From: a virus
Direction: 5' to 3' (one strand)
IMG/VR virus record: IMGVR_UViG_3300045988_057690
Location: 1 to 39,663 of that record
Length of the DNA stretch: 39,663 bases
Part shown: one piece after another, positions 915 through 39,663 of the stretch
How positions within the stretch are numbered: position 1 is the first letter of the stretch
Layout: the number at the start of each line of letters is the position of its first letter
The notes under the pieces: model-generated
Told to the model about the DNA's origin: nothing
Database searches by the model: none
The model's input: the letters and a program-made list of their open reading frames with translations, nothing else
Made by a program: the position numbers and the translations under genes

Positions 915-1624
915 TTGTAAAAGTTATCCCGAGCAAGGTTGCCGTTCCATTTGTGAAAACGCACCATTACAGCGGTAAGGTCGTGAACAACAGCAATCTG
1001 CATTTTGGTGTATTTTACGAGGGACGGCTTCACGGGGTCATGTCCTTTGGCCCGTCACTGGATAAGTCTAAAATCCAAGGGCTTGTCGATGGGACGGGAT
1101 GGAACGAATTCATCGAACTAAACCGCATGGCGTTTGACGATGTTTTGCCGCGCAATAGCGAGAGCAGAGCGATTGCGATTGCAATGAAGCTAATCCGAAA
1201 GAACGCTCCACAAATCAAATGGGTCATTTCGTTTGCGGATGGGTGTTCGTGCGGAGACGGGACGATATACCGAGCGAGCGGTTTTGTTTTGACGGCAATC
1301 AAGCCTAACGGTAATCTGGTGCAACTCCCAGACGGCGAGAAAATACACAAGATGACCCTCGAAAGTAATCCAACATCCCCACGAAAGGAACTTGGCGGAA
1401 AAAGCTATTACGATATAACCGGCGGAAACTTCAATTTCAAAAAATATGTGACTTATGTTGGTGGCGAGATTTTGACCGGATACCAACTCCGGTATATCTA
1501 TTTTATTGACCCGTCATATAAAGAGCGGCTTACTGTCCCCGTCATTCCGTTTTCCAAAATTGACGAAATTGGAGCGGGAATGTATAAAGGCGAAAAGGTA
1601 ACGCAAGCAGAAAGGCACCAGTGA
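893..1624 (+). CDS. GNAT-fold, Mom-like putative DNA-modification acyltransferase
   Basis: 243 aa. The pattern VPFVKTHHYSGK...NSESRAIAIA...GDGTIYRASGFVL resembles proteins annotated as the Mom family; this is recalled, not searched. GAGGTGA RBS. Overlaps the ParB-like gene by 22 nt. Confidence 0.5.
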   Translation: MGNAKNLIVKVIPSKVAVPFVKTHHYSGKVVNNSNLHFGVFYEGRLHGVMSFGPSLDKSKIQGLVDGTGWNEFIELNRMAFDDVLPRNSESRAIAIAMKLIRKNAPQIKWVISFADGCSCGDGTIYRASGFVLTAIKPNGNLVQLPDGEKIHKMTLESNPTSPRKELGGKSYYDITGGNFNFKKYVTYVGGEILTGYQLRYIYFIDPSYKERLTVPVIPFSKIDEIGAGMYKGEKVTQAERHQ

Positions 1625-6740: not shown

Positions 6741-7310
6741 ATGAAGAAGGAAGAGCTGCTGAGTCTCGGCCTGACGGAAGAGCAGGCGGACAAGGTCATC
6801 GTCATGAACGGTTTGAGCATCGAAAACCTCAGAAAGGCTGCTGAGAACGCGAAAGCGGACAAGAAAGCCCTGGAGGAACAGGTGAAGGACCGCAATAAGG
6901 ACATCGAAGACCTGAAAGCAAAGGTAAAGGCTGACGTGGATGCTGACGCTATCCGAAAGCAGCTGGAGGAGTTGCGGGGCAAGTATGACAAGGAGACTGA
7001 GGCCTATAAAGCCCAGCTTGCCCAGCGTGACTACCAGAGTGCTGTAGACAAGGCCATCGCTGACAGCGGGGTCAAGTTTACGTCAAAATCCGCCGAAAAG
7101 GCTTTCCGGGCTGAAATCAAGCTCGAAATGAAGGACGGCGCACTAGCCGGGTTTGACAAGTACCTGGAACAGGCGAAGTCCAACGACCCGAGCGCCTTTG
7201 TCAAGGCTGGGGGCCGTATCGACACCCAGGGGTCGCTCGAAGGCGGCGCTGGCGGCGATAAGGCACCCACCACTTTGGCGGGCGCTCTGCACGCAAAATA
7301 TGACAAGTGA
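6741..7310 (+). CDS. Head scaffolding protein
   Basis: 189 aa, charged coiled-coil (KADKKALEEQVKDRNKDIEDLKAKV), immediately upstream of the capsid gene. AAGGAGAG RBS. Confidence 0.8.
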   Translation: MKKEELLSLGLTEEQADKVIVMNGLSIENLRKAAENAKADKKALEEQVKDRNKDIEDLKAKVKADVDADAIRKQLEELRGKYDKETEAYKAQLAQRDYQSAVDKAIADSGVKFTSKSAEKAFRAEIKLEMKDGALAGFDKYLEQAKSNDPSAFVKAGGRIDTQGSLEGGAGGDKAPTTLAGALHAKYDK

Positions 7311-11071: not shown

Positions 11072-11619
11072 ACTACTATCTGCCGACCTCTGTCGATGTC
11101 AACGGGAATGAGTATCAGATCGACACCGACTACCGTACTGTCCTTATCACTTTGGAGGCCCTATCCGACCCAGAGCTGACCGATCAGGACAAAGCAGAGG
11201 TCATGCTATCCAACTTTTTCGCCGACTTTCCTGGGAAAATGCCGCCGGAAGACTATGCAGAGGCTGTGAATCGGTGCTTCGCGTTTATCAACCTGGGGGC
11301 GGATCAAAAGGACGTGAAAAGCGGCCCTAAGTTATTGGATTGGCAGCAGGACTTCCCCCTGATCGTTGCCCCTATCAACAGGGTCATGGGCACGGAGATT
11401 CGTGCCCTGGAATATCTCCATTGGTGGACTTTTATCGCCGCCTATAACGAAATCGGAGACTGCACCTTTTCGCAGGTAGTCAACATACGCAATAAGCGGG
11501 CGATGGGCAAGCCTTTGGACAAAGGAGAACGAGAATTCTACCGAAAAAACCGGGAATTAGTTGATTTTCAGAAGAAATACACATCGGAAGATGATGAACT
11601 TATCAGCAAGTGGGTGTAA
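11068..11619 (+). CDS. Gp15-family protein (second tail chaperone position)
   Basis: 183 aa. MNYYLPTSVDVNGNEYQIDTDYRTVL resembles the Bacteriophage Gp15 family (recalled). ATGA overlap with the previous ORF. Confidence 0.6.
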   Translation: MNYYLPTSVDVNGNEYQIDTDYRTVLITLEALSDPELTDQDKAEVMLSNFFADFPGKMPPEDYAEAVNRCFAFINLGADQKDVKSGPKLLDWQQDFPLIVAPINRVMGTEIRALEYLHWWTFIAAYNEIGDCTFSQVVNIRNKRAMGKPLDKGEREFYRKNRELVDFQKKYTSEDDELISKWV

Positions 11620-23839: not shown

Positions 23840-25186
23840 CTAAACTGGCGTTACAAAAAACGCACCGTTATCATCCGCCTCGATGCGCTGCACCGTTCTG
23901 GCCCAAAAGGCCTTTTTTTGTGCCCTGGTCATGCTAGGGTACTCCTCCAATTGGCACTTTATTTCTGATATTGGGGTCGGGGGAGGGGCCATCTTCTGCA
24001 CCATCTCCAGCGTTTCCAGTTGTTCCTTTAGACCTGCATAGTCCTTTTTATAGTCCTCTATCTCAATTAGATCCGATAGATACAAGTCTTTGAGCTTCTG
24101 CATTTTGCGCCGGATAGATTCCGGGGTGACTGCCGGGGCTTTTTCTTTTTTGGCCCTCTTTTCGACCTGGAACCGGTAAGCCTCTATGAGATGCACGATC
24201 TCCCGTAAAAGATAATCTTCCAATACATCCTCTTTGACGCGGTGGACGTGTTTGCACGTTCCCTTAATCATCTTTGTTCGGCACCTATAATAGATATACG
24301 TGTATGTCTTCCCGTTCTCCCCCTTTATCTTTGTTTCTGATTGCATCGATTTCCCACATTCGCGGCACACAAGCAGCCTAGAAAAGAGGTATACGCGATC
24401 TGCATTTTCGGACGAATTCCGGGTGCTCCTCCGAGCGAGTATAGCGTTCGCCAGATCAAAGTCTTTTTTGTCTATCAACGCGGGAAAAGCGTTCTCAACT
24501 CCATACGCCTCCCCAATATATAGCCTGTTCTTGATGTATCGCACAAAGTTATTGTATGTCCGGGTTATCCCGTAGCGCTCACGCATATATTTCGATACGC
24601 CCAGGGCGGACTGCAATGCAATATACTGGGCAAACATATCACGGGCTATATCGGCCGTTTCCGGGTCGATGGTATAGTGGCTGTTCACTACCTTTATCCC
24701 GAGGGGAGCCTTTGCATTCGTTGACTGACCCTTTGCTTTTTTTGCCTCTGTAATAAAGCGGATTCGTTCGCTTGTCCGGTCCGCTTCGTCCTGCGCCACG
24801 GACAGCATGATATTGACTTTGAGCCGCCCGGACGCTGTTCTCGTCTCGTAGTCCTCTTTGGTAGCCTGCCACGACACGCCGCACCTGTCTAGGATATCCT
24901 GGACGGCGTAGTAGTTCCCAACGTTGCGGAACCATCTGTCCAGCTTAATAAACAGGATGACATCGACCTTGTGCGCCTCGCAATCGCTTAGTAGCCGCAG
25001 CAGATCGGGGCGCTTCGTGTACGGCTTCCTGGCCGATATCCCGGCATCGCTATACACCCCCACCACATCCATGCCGTTCTTCTCTGCATACGCTTTCAGG
25101 GAGTTTAGCTGTTCCTGCAGCGACAACCCGTGCTTTGCCTGTTCCTCCGTGGACACCCTGACGTAGAGTGCAGCTCTTTGTTTCAT
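23840..25186 (-). CDS. int: Large serine recombinase (integrase)
   Basis: 448 aa. Resolvase N-terminus AALYVRVSTEEQ with catalytic Ser, a recombinase domain, a zinc ribbon CRECGK...YYRC and a C-terminal coiled coil. Confidence 0.95.
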   Translation of the reverse strand: MKQRAALYVRVSTEEQAKHGLSLQEQLNSLKAYAEKNGMDVVGVYSDAGISARKPYTKRPDLLRLLSDCEAHKVDVILFIKLDRWFRNVGNYYAVQDILDRCGVSWQATKEDYETRTASGRLKVNIMLSVAQDEADRTSERIRFITEAKKAKGQSTNAKAPLGIKVVNSHYTIDPETADIARDMFAQYIALQSALGVSKYMRERYGITRTYNNFVRYIKNRLYIGEAYGVENAFPALIDKKDFDLANAILARRSTRNSSENADRVYLFSRLLVCRECGKSMQSETKIKGENGKTYTYIYYRCRTKMIKGTCKHVHRVKEDVLEDYLLREIVHLIEAYRFQVEKRAKKEKAPAVTPESIRRKMQKLKDLYLSDLIEIEDYKKDYAGLKEQLETLEMVQKMAPPPTPISEIKCQLEEYPSMTRAQKKAFWARTVQRIEADDNGAFFVTPV

Positions 25187-25195
25187 GTGGTAACC

Positions 25196-25609
25196 TCACC
25201 CTCTAAAAAAACCGACTGTAGACGCACAATTATCCAGCGTGACCGCATACATGGCGATCAGTGCAACAACAACTATCAAGCCAAACACGATCCTACGCAG
25301 CATCTTCACGCTTCGCTCCAGCAAATCCTGCTTCTCACGCTCGACTTTGAGTTGCCGTTCCATCAACTCACGCTCGGACGGAGTAGGCTCATCTCCCGGG
25401 TCATCCGGCACGATTCCAAATATTTTGTCCAGGCTGACCCCCAGGACAGCACAAATAGGCCCGACAGTGTAGACGGACGGCGACTTTGAGGCAGACGAAA
25501 AGAAATTGTTTACCGTGGAAATGTTCACGTCCGATTTGTCCGCGACATCCTGATTCGTCAGCTTTTTCCGTTCCTTCGCCTCACGGCAAATATCCTGCAA
25601 GGGCATCAT
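25196..25609 (-). CDS. XRE-family HTH regulator with coiled coil and C-terminal transmembrane anchor (repressor candidate)
   Basis: ATG 25609 after AGGAGGTGGGG. HTH KLTNQDVADKSDVNISTVNNFFS. C-terminal helix IVFGLIVVVALIAMYAV. Ends 10 nt upstream of the int start. Confidence 0.75.
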   Translation of the reverse strand: MMPLQDICREAKERKKLTNQDVADKSDVNISTVNNFFSSASKSPSVYTVGPICAVLGVSLDKIFGIVPDDPGDEPTPSERELMERQLKVEREKQDLLERSVKMLRRIVFGLIVVVALIAMYAVTLDNCASTVGFFRG

Positions 25610-26200: not shown

Positions 26201-26327
26201 CGACAAACCGCCTATTCTCACGCTTTTCCCACTCTGCACGCTTCCTCGCAGCTACTTTCCAGTCGTTCGCTTCTGCGTTGGCCCTGAGCTTGTCTTGCGG
26301 GTCCGACGGAAAAAATGCTGACATCAT
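26124..26327 (-). CDS. Small tail-anchored membrane protein
   Basis: 67 aa. AGGAG RBS and ATGA coupling to the upstream HTH gene. C-terminal helix VVTAALSAVAALAAVAGVILQLAA. Overlaps the 3' end of the 26006-26200 ORF by 77 nt. Confidence 0.4.
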   Translation of the reverse strand: MMSAFFPSDPQDKLRANAEANDWKVAARKRAEWEKRENRRFVVTAALSAVAALAAVAGVILQLAAMR

Positions 26328-26782
26328 CTCATCTCCTGCAATTTCTTGTTGACCTCATCCAGGACGGCCAGCAGTGTTGTCCGATCATCCGTTTTGCGGA
26401 TAAAATCTAAGAGCGCATCCTTGCCCCCGCCAACTTCGGCGGGGGCTTCTTTTTTTGCGTTCTTCCCCCGCTCCACCTCGATCAGCCGCTTAACCTCCTC
26501 GATATCCTCCAGGCACTTCTGCGTCTCCTCTTCGGTGGGGCCGGAGTGGAGGAGGATCTCTTCGGGGGTGGTTTGGAGGAGGAGGCACATTTTGGCGGCC
26601 TCTTCGGGGGAGGGGAGGTTCTTAGGCGCTGGCTTTCCATCCTTTTCGCGTCTATTCCAGTCTGTTACCCAGTTGTGTGCTCGCCCCATTCGTTCGCAAA
26701 AGACGACATAACTGCGGCATGTTTTTTTAATTAACGAATTGGTTGCTGACAAGTTTAATTTAACGATTTTCCTGCGAGACAT
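26324..26782 (-). CDS. HTH DNA-binding regulator (second repressor-like protein)
   Basis: ATG 26782 (a GTG at 26794 is also possible). HTH-like LSATNSLIKKTCRSYVVFCERMGRAHNWVTDW. Confidence 0.65.
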   Translation of the reverse strand: MSRRKIVKLNLSATNSLIKKTCRSYVVFCERMGRAHNWVTDWNRREKDGKPAPKNLPSPEEAAKMCLLLQTTPEEILLHSGPTEEETQKCLEDIEEVKRLIEVERGKNAKKEAPAEVGGGKDALLDFIRKTDDRTTLLAVLDEVNKKLQEMR

Positions 26783-26796
26783 AGTTGCAAACACCC

Positions 26797-26825
26797 TTTA
26801 CAGGCTATAATATGTAGGTTATAAT
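26797..26825 (+). promoter_or_regulatory. Candidate promoter for the 26847 gene within a divergent control region
   Basis: TTTACA (26797-26802), 17 nt, TATAAT (26820-26825). A second TATAAT lies at 26806-26811 after TTGCAA. Confidence 0.5.
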
Positions 26826-26846: not shown

Positions 26847-27098
26847 ATGTTCCAAACTAGGACACAGATCAAAAACCGAATCCGATTTTTAGAGGAGAAG
26901 GTAGGCGCACTGGAACAGTCACTAAAATTATCAAACGAAAGCAACCTAGGAAAGTGTCGTGGTGTGTTTTGTATCGGCTGCACCCATGCTGTTTGGTATC
27001 AGCACGGGAATTTCTCGAAAAAAGTTATTGGGTGCGACGTTGACGTGCCGTGTGAACACTTTTCAAGAGCAAAGAGGGCAAACGACCGGACCGAATAA
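26847..27098 (+). CDS. Cys-rich hypothetical protein
   Basis: 83 aa, AAAGGAGG RBS. Cysteines in CRGVFCIGCTH...GCDVDVPCEH. Confidence 0.6.
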   Translation: MFQTRTQIKNRIRFLEEKVGALEQSLKLSNESNLGKCRGVFCIGCTHAVWYQHGNFSKKVIGCDVDVPCEHFSRAKRANDRTE

Positions 27099-27428
27099 CT
27101 GCATAAACGAAACGACCAGGCTTAAAACAGCGATAAACGTAGTGATGGCGTAGGGAACCCAAAAATTCCTTCCATCACGACGGCGTTGCTCGATGTAGGC
27201 TTTTCCGGCAACTTCGATTTTATACCCGATTGCTTCATAGTCATTTATTCCGTTGACAACAACAATCTGGTTGACCTCGGATATATAACCCGCTTTCAGC
27301 AAGGAGGTTATATGTTGGCTTTGATGTTTCCTCTCATCTTCGCCCGTGATCGCATTGATTTCATCAATCGTCATTTGGCCTTTTTTGTATAGGGCCTTCA
27401 ATAGTTTATAGGTTTTTTTATCGAACAT
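27063..27428 (-). CDS. Winged-HTH (MarR-like) protein with a C-terminal transmembrane anchor
   Basis: 121 aa. YKLLKALYKKGQMTIDEINAITG followed by a hydrophobic C-terminus AITTFIAVLSLVVSFMQLF. Convergent with the 26847 gene and overlaps it by 36 nt. Confidence 0.6.
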   Translation of the reverse strand: MFDKKTYKLLKALYKKGQMTIDEINAITGEDERKHQSQHITSLLKAGYISEVNQIVVVNGINDYEAIGYKIEVAGKAYIEQRRRDGRNFWVPYAITTFIAVLSLVVSFMQLFGPVVCPLCS

Positions 27429-27463
27429 ATCTTGAATAAAACACTCCTAGAGAAATTTCATTT

Positions 27464-27504
27464 CCGCCCTTTTGTGCATTTATTACAAATGGGCGGTTTT
27501 ATTT
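27464..27504 (+). terminator. Terminator-like hairpin, rightward sense
   Basis: CCGCCC-T-TTTGT ... ACAAA-T-GGGCGG followed by TTTTATTTAT. Confidence 0.45.
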
Positions 27505-27541
27505 ATAGCCATATTGCTGGCTAAAAATAAGTAGAAATAAA

Positions 27542-27570
27542 TTGACAGGCTATAAAAAATACGCTATAAT
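27542..27570 (+). promoter_or_regulatory. Consensus sigma-A promoter, rightward
   Basis: TTGACA (27542-27547), 17-nt spacer, TATAAT (27565-27570). An ATG at 27578 lies at about the +1 position. Confidence 0.7.
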
Positions 27571-27796
27571 AACTTACATGAGAACTCAATCAGGCAACAA
27601 AAAACCAAGCCCCCAAATAACTTCTTGTTTTTTGCGGGTTTATAGCCGATATTCTGTTGGCTGACACTTACATGATAACGGCTAGTTCTTTGTTTGTCAA
27701 GATGGTTTCTCATATGTTGATGCGGCGGGGATAGGCAGTCGGCGCGAGCGTATCCCCCGGGGTTATCAGGGACCAGCGGGAGTGCCATTCCCGCTG

Positions 27797-27834
27797 GAAA
27801 ACAAAGGCCGGCGGGAGCACTATTCCCACCGGCC
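27797..27834 (-). terminator. Rho-independent terminator, leftward sense
   Basis: On the minus strand: GGCCGGTGGGA atagtgc TCCCGCCGGCC (one G-U pair) followed by TTTGTTTTCC. Confidence 0.65.
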
Positions 27835-28167
27835 AATGTCCAAATTTGTTTACCCTTTGCCCCGTGCAGGCTTTCGCCGCTTGCAATAGTGCTACAAGTT
27901 CTTCTGGAGCCTCACCACTTTCGCAGTTTTGGTTCTGCGCATTGCCTTCTCGCTGGTAAGCAATCGGGAGTACTTAATACGGTGGGATATGATAGGCATA
28001 TCACCATGAGTTTTTAGCTCTTCACTGAGCGCTCCGCCGTATTAGTTGCTGCATTTGACCAGTTTTAAGTGCTTTGGTGCCACTATTGCGACCCGTTTGT
28101 GAGGGAACAGGCAAAGTCAAAAATTTGGTCACATGACCACCACCTTTGATTTTGCCCTTAGAGGGCT
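27798..28167 (-). ncRNA. Candidate ~370-nt structured non-coding RNA, leftward, of unknown family
   Basis: Bounded by a near-consensus promoter (28174-28202) and an intrinsic terminator (27797-27834). No ORF with a credible RBS. Nested helices: 27883-27891/28081-28089, 27975-27985/28034-28044, 27986-27991/27997-28002. Confidence 0.45.
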
Positions 28168-28173
28168 GGAGGA

Positions 28174-28202
28174 ATTATAGCAAATATCCCCGTCGCCGTC
28201 AA
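28174..28202 (-). promoter_or_regulatory. Near-consensus sigma-A promoter, leftward
   Basis: Minus strand TTGACG (28202-28197), 17-nt spacer, TATAAT (28179-28174). A weaker rightward TTGCCC-18-TATAGC (28152-28181) overlaps it. Confidence 0.7.
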
Positions 28203-28230
28203 CGAGAACTCATATAAAGGAGGAATGATT

Positions 28231-39608: not shown

Positions 39609-39663
39609 TCTAAGTATACCACGCATTGCGTGGTAAGTCAAGGGGGGTTGTAAAAAAATCTGA
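39609..39663. repeat. Terminal 55-nt identity with 1-55 (circular closure)
   Basis: Exact match to the window start. Confidence 0.95.
39613..39641 (-). promoter_or_regulatory. Leftward promoter with a 19-bp palindromic operator in the spacer (copy B; identical to nt 5-33 through circular closure)
   Basis: Minus strand TTGACT, 17 nt, TATACT. Palindrome TACCACGCA-T-TGCGTGGTA at 39617-39635. Confidence 0.7.

Follow-up and report, generated by a model that had tools for sequence, protein, structure and literature searches.

The viral record IMGVR_UViG_3300045988_057690 was analysed from position 1 to position 39,663, and this whole stretch of 39,663 nt is hereafter called the window. A gene-free interval within it (27429-28224) is flanked by a leftward open reading frame (ORF) of 121 amino acids (aa) on one side and by a rightward gene for a Cro-like helix-turn-helix (HTH) protein on the other. 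An earlier sequence-only reading of the window had placed in this interval a strong leftward promoter, an intrinsic terminator and, between them, a structured RNA of ~370 nt. As judged by sequence comparison, the interval is indeed the site of a self-contained minus-strand gene for such an RNA, and the 3' part of the predicted transcript belongs to FuFi-1, a motif family in Rfam (RF02986). The features of the locus are collected in Table 1.

Both promoters singled out by the sequence-only reading, the leftward P_RNA and the rightward P_opp, were recovered by a scan for matches to a sigma-70-type consensus, scored out of 12. Four sites in the whole 39.7-kb window reach at least 11/12, and three of them fall inside this 0.8 kb. 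The -35 and -10 boxes of P_RNA are kept in 30 of 30 unique aligned relatives (TTGAC-17-TATAmT), and the position of its -10 box (28179-28174) predicts a start near 28167. At the other end, the terminator scan likewise finds the proposed hairpin and U tract (27834-27797). The Rfam FuFi-1 model has this hairpin (27834-27806, then TTTGTTTT) as its terminator stem; among the aligned relatives it is 97% paired, and 10 of the 11 pairs have undergone compensatory changes. With the U tract ending near 27798, the predicted transcript is ~370 nt long. Conservation among relatives begins at P_RNA and ends at the terminator, the 370 nt beyond being unconserved save for partial matches in two loci, and the whole unit recurs in more than 100 loci of temperate phages and prophages of gut Clostridia, from viral contigs and from metagenome-assembled genomes (MAGs). 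The relatives carry the same RNA, not a protein gene, at the homologous position, which refutes the alternative that the interval is a decayed pseudogene.

Table 1. Predicted and annotated features in and around the interval, with positions in the window.
Feature	Position	Strand	Basis or remark
P_RNA, TTGACG-17-TATAAT, extended -10 TG	28202-28174	-	consensus scan, 11/12
Predicted ~370-nt transcript (5' domain, FuFi-1, terminator)	27798-28167	-	conservation limits, fold, G.U pairs
FuFi-1 RNA (RF02986), full model 1-175	27960-27802	-	124.3 bits against a gathering score of 59.6, E = 7e-27
Intrinsic terminator, 11-bp stem (27834-27824 with 27816-27806), then UUUGUUUU	27798-27834	-	terminator scan, Rfam model
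Core of 5' domain (H1, H2, H3, H4, hairpins A and B)	27961-28105	-	RNAalifold
H0a, 5'-terminal hairpin GCCCUCUAAGGGC	28154-28166	-	in every clade, with differing stems (GCCU/AGGC, GCCG/UGGC)
H0b, hairpin UGGUC/GACCA with Shine-Dalgarno-like AAAGGUGGUGG	28126-28147	-	the palindrome (28125-28138) of the sequence-only reading
H1, new closing helix	28098-28092 with 27968-27962	-	97.7% paired; 5/6 pairs compensatory
H2, local hairpin	28084-28081 with 28071-28068	-	81% paired; central pair 176:193 U-A 24 / C-G 19
H3	28062-28049	-	RNAalifold
H4, second helix of the sequence-only reading	28046-28038 with 27981-27972	-	91-93% paired; 8/9 pairs compensatory
Hairpin A	28030-28017	-	checked without alignment; kept with many different stem sequences
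Hairpin B, inner hairpin of the sequence-only reading	28002-27986	-	alignment-free check; at least 9 different stem sequences
Candidate small ORF, 36 codons, GTG start	28132-28022	-	12 or 22 codons in most relatives
"Sibling" hairpin, partial copy of terminator stem, no U tract	27773-27797	-	inverted-repeat search
P2, second leftward promoter, TTGACA-17-TATCAT	27700-27672	-	11/12; overlooked by the sequence-only reading
P_opp, rightward promoter, TTGACA-17-TATAAT	27542-27570	+	12/12
Hairpin with one A-rich and one U-rich arm, between P2 and P_opp starts	27592-27632		read from sequence
Promoter-side inverted-repeat copy, GTTGACGGCGACGGGGATA on minus strand	28185-28203		inverted-repeat search
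Distal inverted-repeat copy, GTTGATGCGGCGGGGATA on plus strand	27715-27733		with the promoter-side copy brackets the RNA gene
Cro-like HTH gene, divergent, 81 aa	28225-28470	+	Pfam HTH_3, 5.9e-12; PHROG repressor/regulator families
ORF of 121 aa, hydrophobic C-terminus	27063-27428	-	phrog_12206 (family of unknown function); first gene past the RNA

An extended FuFi-1 RNA and its conserved fold

An Rfam scan of the window at gathering thresholds gave two hits in all, FuFi-1 and GP20-b. The families that the sequence-only reading had named as targets for such a scan (c4, ROOL and GOLLD) gave no match on either strand, at the gathering threshold or with E up to 5, and weak matches to RsaJ, RUF1 and others in 27424-27641 lay so far below the cut-offs that they are regarded as chance. 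The FuFi-1 match covers the 3' 159 nt, or ~40% of the transcript, and contains the GCAGAACCAAAACUGC hairpin, the single-stranded GGGUAAACAAAUUUGG and the 3' intrinsic terminator. The predicted RNA is a clear member of the family because every defining feature tested was found in it, namely the score, the covarying helices, the Rho-independent terminator and hosts among the Firmicutes. The main text of Weinberg et al. (2017; PMC5737381) presents FuFi-1 as an orphan motif with no function assigned; there, the motif occurs rarely in 5' untranslated regions (UTRs), ends in a Rho-independent terminator, showed no self-cleavage and is listed among motifs whose properties suggest a sophisticated biochemical function. 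A search of the searchable literature found FuFi-1 mentioned in no other paper.

Relatives were gathered by patterns taken from conserved cores, and the sample is thus biased towards close relatives. Exact-core patterns retrieved 47 IMG/VR viral contigs, a pattern from the upstream region retrieved 59, and a FuFi-1 pattern retrieved eight MAG contigs from Lachnospiraceae, Eubacterium, Acetatifactor and Acutalibacteraceae. The sampled hosts are Clostridia (Firmicutes), the fusobacterial members of FuFi-1 lying outside the sample. Rfam confirmed the motif in all eight MAG contigs (111-148 bits) and in 11 of the 14 loci newly retrieved by the upstream pattern. A broader FuFi-1 pattern gave 53 further loci; nhmmer finds the motif in 39 of these, and the remaining 14 are chance matches.

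Conservation extends well beyond the Rfam motif. The ~250 nt upstream of FuFi-1 are 75-82% conserved in 46 of the 47 viral loci, even where FuFi-1 itself is only ~74-77% identical to that of the window. The 5' domain (~205 nt), for which no matching Rfam family was found, lies directly upstream of FuFi-1 in 39/39 of the further viral loci and is present, at least partly, in 7/7 MAG loci with sufficient upstream sequence. The suggestion of a large structured phage RNA is borne out in both halves of the transcript, the 3' half being FuFi-1 and the 5' half a domain that is itself conserved and whose helices covary. Among the relatives, this domain varies, and its variants include a ~70-nt insertion with extra hairpins in two MAG contigs (L066 and L069), the loss of the H4 region in L033, loci of the L054/L063 and L076 types, and several loci with a shortened domain; these variants could serve as natural deletion mutants.

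The fold was examined in a MAFFT alignment of 45 unique full-length elements that had not been fitted to any structure, by RNAalifold and by explicit counts of pairs. Overall, 93% of helix cells are paired, compared with 34-44% when the partners are slid by 1-3 columns. The FuFi-1 helices P1, P1a, P2, P3 and P4 and the terminator (27960-27806) are 88-100% paired, and most of their pairs show compensatory changes. In the 5' domain, compensation is well illustrated by one pair of the closing helix H1, which is C-G in 15 elements, U-A in 14, U-G in 8 and G-C in 5. The stems of H0a are extended in loci L004, L056 and L068. Hairpin H0b fits the alignment, with 91% pairing across the family, and both of its arms are conserved, which leaves no covariation.

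Two of the three helices that the sequence-only reading had picked out by eye hold for the family. The helix of 27975-27985 with 28034-28044, here H4, passed the covariation check, and the inner hairpin at 27986-28002 persists while its stem sequence takes nine or more different forms. The third, 27883-27891 with 28081-28089, pairs at 9/9 positions in the window; tested as a loop pseudoknot, against true helices above 88% and slid controls of 36-44%, it is 73% paired across the family with no real compensation, and it conflicts with FuFi-1 hairpin P3 and with the better-covarying local hairpin H2. It was rejected as a family feature. The palindrome and the two sibling hairpins (27773-27797 and 27806-27834) of the same reading are all present, the first sibling being seen only in the window; in the relatives, a copy of an inverted repeat directly follows the terminator.

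Several unpaired stretches are invariant or nearly so, namely the loop of the GCAGAACCAAAACUGC hairpin, GGGUAAACAAAUUUGG, UAAAAC, GUCGCAA and UUGCCUG. The two domains may also touch each other. CCC at 28105-28103 and GGG at 27855-27853 are 100% paired, with one covarying pair (C-G 32, U-A 6, U-G 4), and this pairing is no more than suggestive of a docking of the 5' domain onto a single-stranded stretch of FuFi-1. A second possible contact between the 5' domain and the invariant FuFi-1 single strand is CCAAA with UUUGG; CCAAAUUU and AAAUUUGG are 80% paired, both sides being invariant.

The sense RNA is predicted to fold at -127.6 kcal/mol (z = -3.1), compared with z = -5.0 for the antisense strand. 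Folding energy alone cannot identify the transcribed strand because the antisense folds equally well; the many G.U pairs in the covarying helices place the predicted structure on the minus strand. The G+C content is 34% in the promoter-rich part (27429-27720), 49% in the RNA gene and 56% in the whole window.

The cI/cro region and its face-to-face promoters

The surroundings of the RNA gene recur along with it. A divergent small ORF starts 15-220 nt upstream of the RNA start in 79 of 93 loci, and 14 of the 38 unique ORFs of this kind match HTH_3. On the other side, an ORF on the same strand starts 60-520 nt past the RNA in 82 of 95 loci; among 42 unique downstream ORFs, 20 match HTH_3 or HTH_26, three Peptidase_S24 and three Phage_CI_repr, and four further types, negative in Pfam, match PHROG repressor/regulator families. 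In the relatives, the repressor-like gene follows the terminator at a distance of ~200-250 nt, on the same strand, and is served by its own promoter. By this comparison, the RNA gene is located inside the cI/cro switch, at a fixed place and in a fixed orientation, and does not replace cI. The sequence-only reading had put the RNA where a cI gene would be expected; the relatives have the RNA and, past its terminator, the repressor-like gene as well. The RNA is far better conserved than the cI and cro alleles that flank it. A trial of RNAduplex pairing between the RNA and downstream 5' UTRs gave meaningless duplexes of full length with non-significant z-scores, and it was abandoned.

The slot of the repressor-like gene is filled in the window by the 121-aa ORF, and promoter P2 corresponds to the promoter found ahead of the repressor-like gene in the relatives. 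The 121-aa ORF looks like an inserted accessory gene driven by P2, because its relatives in other phages occur without FuFi-1: the motif was not found in L048-L051, the phages that carry relatives of this ORF, and a linkage of the ORF to the RNA was ruled out for this reason. Two other genes of the window are candidates for the repressor. One is the leftward ORF 25196-25606, which encodes an HTH_3 domain and a hydrophobic C-terminus and adjoins the serine integrase gene. In the other (26324-26794, leftward), only the C-terminal 35 residues match the repressor-like proteins of the relatives, at 60% identity, and no Pfam or PHROG family was matched; the pattern suggests a modular repressor with a swapped DNA-binding end.

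Past the terminator lies a conserved arrangement of promoters. Most loci have a same-strand promoter (TTGACA-17-TACAAT, 11/12) ~45 nt beyond the terminator and an opposite-strand promoter ~140 nt further on, and P_opp is found at the same relative position, at 10/12 or better, in 32 of 50 unique loci. P2 and P_opp face each other, their predicted starts lying ~88 nt apart in the window and about 70-90 nt apart generally, and P_opp also converges on P_RNA. No rightward promoter of at least 10/12 was found nearer to the Cro-like gene in any locus, and no rightward terminator was called between P_opp and 28225 in the window, the path being likewise clear in the relatives. The scan did not call the window's hairpin between the two starts as a terminator; at the same place, the relatives have a conserved GGGGGCU-GGUUUUU element. 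In several relatives, the -35 box of P_opp is enclosed in palindromes specific to the immunity type, the arms of which reach 17 bp, as would be expected for a repressor operator.

Taken together, these features point to an early rightward transcript that begins at P_opp and runs antisense through the RNA gene. Because the conserved face-to-face pair lies just past the terminator, the RNA gene is probably antisense within the rightward early leader. The convergent-transcription switch that the sequence-only reading had offered as one of its options gains support from the recurring position of P_opp and from the lack of a called terminator before the Cro-like gene. A type I toxin-antitoxin system of the par/Fst kind was considered for the P2/P_opp pair, which does have the convergent promoters and shared hairpin of such a system; it was rejected, as the starts are only ~70-90 nt apart and the sole ORF (28 aa, at 27580) is not hydrophobic.

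The RNA gene is bracketed by an inverted repeat of 14-19 bp, of which there are exactly two copies per locus in the clade of the window. Differences between the copies are biased towards transitions that keep G.U pairing in the rightward transcript (20 versus 6 overall, ~14 versus 1 in the core). This bias suggests that the two copies pair over a long range within the early leader, and the resulting stem may be a processing site. The same repeat is common to phages with different cI and cro alleles, and its interpretation as a cI operator was rejected on that ground. The distal copy was also considered as a promoter on the opposite strand and was rejected, having no -10 box.

A blastn search in distant mode of 27429-28224 against 50,697 records of cultured phages gave no match; no characterised phage is usable as a guide. 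The window genome is that of a temperate, siphovirus-like phage, with a serine integrase gene at 23840-25186 next to the HTH_3 protein gene and, on the right of the Cro-like gene, early genes of the Gam-like and exonuclease-like types. The fourth strong promoter of the window (26797-26825, rightward, TTTACA-17-TATAAT, 11/12) precedes an 83-aa ORF (26847-27098, rightward) that matched no family; this ORF runs towards the 121-aa ORF and overlaps its 3' end. Just upstream of P_opp, a terminator-like hairpin on the plus strand (27464-27506) consists of CCGCCCTTTTGT, 9 nt and ACAAATGGGCGG, followed by TTTTATTTAT; its 9-nt loop caused the terminator scan to pass over it, and such a hairpin would insulate P_opp from rightward transcription arriving from the left. 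Elsewhere in the window, the GP20-b RNA (RF03003; 6662-6721, plus strand, 57.1 bits against a gathering score of 36.2) lies just upstream of ORF 6741-7310 in the structural module. Other RNAs were seen in related viral contigs, namely a pemK RNA motif (RF02913, 72.5 bits) at 11436-11535 (minus strand) of L057 and a tRNA gene at 1007-1078 (minus strand) of L059.

Possible roles of the RNA

Our preferred reading, to which we give a probability of roughly 0.35, is that this is a lysogeny-side RNA gene that opposes early rightward expression. P_opp would be the repressor-controlled early promoter, set face to face with P2 on the repressor side, and its transcript would have to cross the RNA gene in antisense before reaching the Cro-like gene. 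Polymerases from P_RNA would collide with the rightward early transcription, and the RNA, if abundant, would pair with leaky early transcripts, which it can do because it is perfectly complementary to the early leader. Collision and pairing together would fix the level that must be exceeded before the Cro-like gene and the early genes are expressed, with the conserved fold probably giving stability and, most likely, a binding partner.

A number of points weigh against this reading. All of the start sites, and the transcript from P_opp to the cro gene, are predictions, and P_opp of the window is without a palindromic operator. The G.U bias of the inverted repeat may reflect as few as 8-10 independent events, and only one clade has the repeat. 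Interference and antisense pairing alone would not explain a 370-nt fold with invariant unpaired stretches, a fold that retains 75-97% identity among phages with unalignable cI and cro genes. Highly structured RNAs, moreover, pair poorly with their complements, and FuFi-1 is listed in the main text of its original description as a candidate for sophisticated biochemical function, not as an antisense RNA (PMC5737381).

The fold itself is the starting point of an alternative that we consider possible if somewhat doubtful, namely that the RNA acts in trans. Expressed by the prophage or at an early stage of infection, it would bind some conserved protein or other RNA (for example a host factor, the ribosome, RNA polymerase, or a component of defence or anti-defence), its position in the switch would only set the timing, and the antisense arrangement would be incidental. 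The invariant unpaired stretches, the promoter and terminator of its own and a degree of conservation far above that of the flanking cI and cro all agree with such a role, as do the traits reported for FuFi-1 in the main text of Weinberg et al. (flagged as sophisticated, rarely in 5' UTRs, no self-cleavage seen; PMC5737381). A role in trans would not account for the constant orientation and place of the gene with respect to P_opp, P2 and the inverted repeat. Such a fold-dependent action could operate alongside interference and antisense pairing.

A further reading is conceivable and, in our judgement, rather unlikely. The extended FuFi-1 would then be a new kind of RNA component of the switch, two-domain and antisense in the early leader, whose fold senses a host factor, the ribosome or a metabolite and thereby alters expression on the Cro side. 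Contact with the ribosome would go through the near-perfect Shine-Dalgarno sequence. If true, this would make the RNA a governor of the lysis-lysogeny decision in many phages of gut Clostridia, whatever their cI/cro type.

The same Shine-Dalgarno-like sequence raises the question of a messenger or dual-function RNA, which is improbable. A small ORF of 12-36 codons at the 5' end would here be translated, either for a peptide of the pattern M-[TS]-x-[LF]-L-x-L-P-[AV]-[PL]-... or for the unwinding of H1 by translation. The sequence-only reading had seen no ORF with a credible ribosome-binding site in the interval. No ORF there matches Pfam. That reading is not strictly true, because the Shine-Dalgarno-like AAAGGTGGTGG (28147-28137; AAAGGAGGTG in relatives) precedes the 36-codon ORF. 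In nearly all loci, AAAGGAGGUG stands 7-9 nt before a GUG or UUG, this NUG being placed at the loop/stem junction of H0b, and the two lineages that have UUA in place of UUG (L031/L043 and L053/L065) possess an in-frame AUG at the preceding codon. The lengths of the ORF group around 12 or 22 codons, and codons 11-14 overlap the 5' strand of H1. However, variability by codon position is not coding-like (entropies of 0.305, 0.502 and 0.376, with no third-position bias), nucleotide conservation runs on unchanged past early stop codons (L004, L037), and L005 differs from L001 by a frameshift after codon 17. The 12-codon stops simply reflect helix H1 in its A/U-rich form, and in L068 the start position is occupied by CUG. 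Pairing, through the H0a extensions and H0b, is moreover predicted for the start codon and for both halves of the Shine-Dalgarno-like sequence. Translation of the small ORF is possible; its selection as a peptide appears unlikely.

We find it harder still to see the RNA as a cis-acting leader or attenuator of riboswitch type, controlling read-through of its own terminator into the repressor-side genes. Its strand, its position upstream of the repressor-like gene in most relatives and a complex fold ending in a terminator would suit such a leader, as would the imperfect U tract of the L001 clade (UUAUGUUUU). However, most loci place the TTGACA-17-TACAAT promoter (11/12) between the terminator and the downstream gene, across a gap of 200-400 nt, and the terminator stem covaries freely with no matching anti-terminator seen. 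Further, the downstream genes vary among loci, the window having the unrelated 121-aa ORF, and such motifs are, according to the main text of PMC5737381, rarely found in 5' UTRs.

Scarcely credible, finally, is the RNA-based immunity that the sequence-only reading had offered as a possibility, in its strongest form, in which the RNA itself would stand in for a protein repressor in the manner of P4 CI or P1/P7 c4: the RNA does adjoin an early gene, has a strong promoter and is complementary to any rightward leader, but repressor-like proteins are encoded beside it in most relatives, with candidates in the window phage too (25196-25606 and 26324-26794), Rfam gives no match to c4 or related families, and the RNA cannot set immunity specificity because nearly the same RNA accompanies different cI and cro alleles.

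Comparison with known systems and significance

The element resembles FuFi-1 as known from Rfam in matching the full model at twice the gathering score and in its hosts, which are Clostridia and their phages. It differs in that, here and in the relatives examined, a covarying 5' domain of ~205 nt precedes the motif, and in that the unit has a fixed place in the cI/cro region. Small RNAs are encoded in or beside the immunity regions of several phages, and those of P4 (CI), P1/P7 (c4), lambda (OOP) and P22 (sar) have intrinsic terminators and are complementary to early or regulatory transcripts. They are ~70-80 nt long with simple stem-loops, and P4 CI and c4 are processed from leaders and act on short complementary sites. 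The RNA described here shares with them its place beside the immunity region, its intrinsic terminator and its complementarity to a predicted early transcript, whereas it is five times longer and multi-domain, contains invariant unpaired sequence and coexists with protein repressors. None of the four matches the window RNA in Rfam.

In coliphages 186 and P2, convergent lytic and lysogenic promoters (pR and pL) stand face to face and are subject to transcriptional interference (PMC6593788, PMC7498355). The promoter pair P2/P_opp is similarly convergent over ~70-90 bp, with a repressor-like gene behind one promoter and Cro-like and early genes behind the other, and operator-like palindromes occur at the presumed lytic promoter in several relatives, if not in the window. 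In contrast to the coliphage switch, the present arrangement is predicted from sequence and belongs to Gram-positive hosts with unrelated proteins, and a convergent 370-nt RNA gene lies between the promoter pair and the Cro-like gene. To our knowledge, coliphages 186 and P2 have no such extra RNA gene in the early leader. The face-to-face pR/pL of 186 may serve as the nearest working analogy for the promoter geometry, and as an analogy only.

Three other RNA motifs in the main text of the 2017 study have, like FuFi-1, complex folds and Rho-independent terminators and are not typical of 5' UTRs (PMC5737381). These are tied to one neighbouring protein family, whereas FuFi-1 is tied to the cI/cro position with variable HTH genes. 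Judged from that main text and from Rfam, the 5' domain, the fixed cI/cro context and the three-promoter layout with its inverted repeat appear to be new.

The Rfam motif makes up less than half of the predicted transcript, which has a second covarying domain. The gene is always at one defined place in the cI/cro switch, with its orientation fixed relative to the face-to-face promoter pair, and these findings turn an orphan motif into a testable hypothesis on the control of prophage induction. For the annotation of such phages, the 0.8-kb "empty" control regions should not be called pseudogenes or gaps. The gene is carried by temperate phages of Lachnospiraceae and Oscillospirales, groups that abound in the gut of humans and animals; if the switches of these phages include an RNA layer, this would matter for how prophages are induced in the microbiome.

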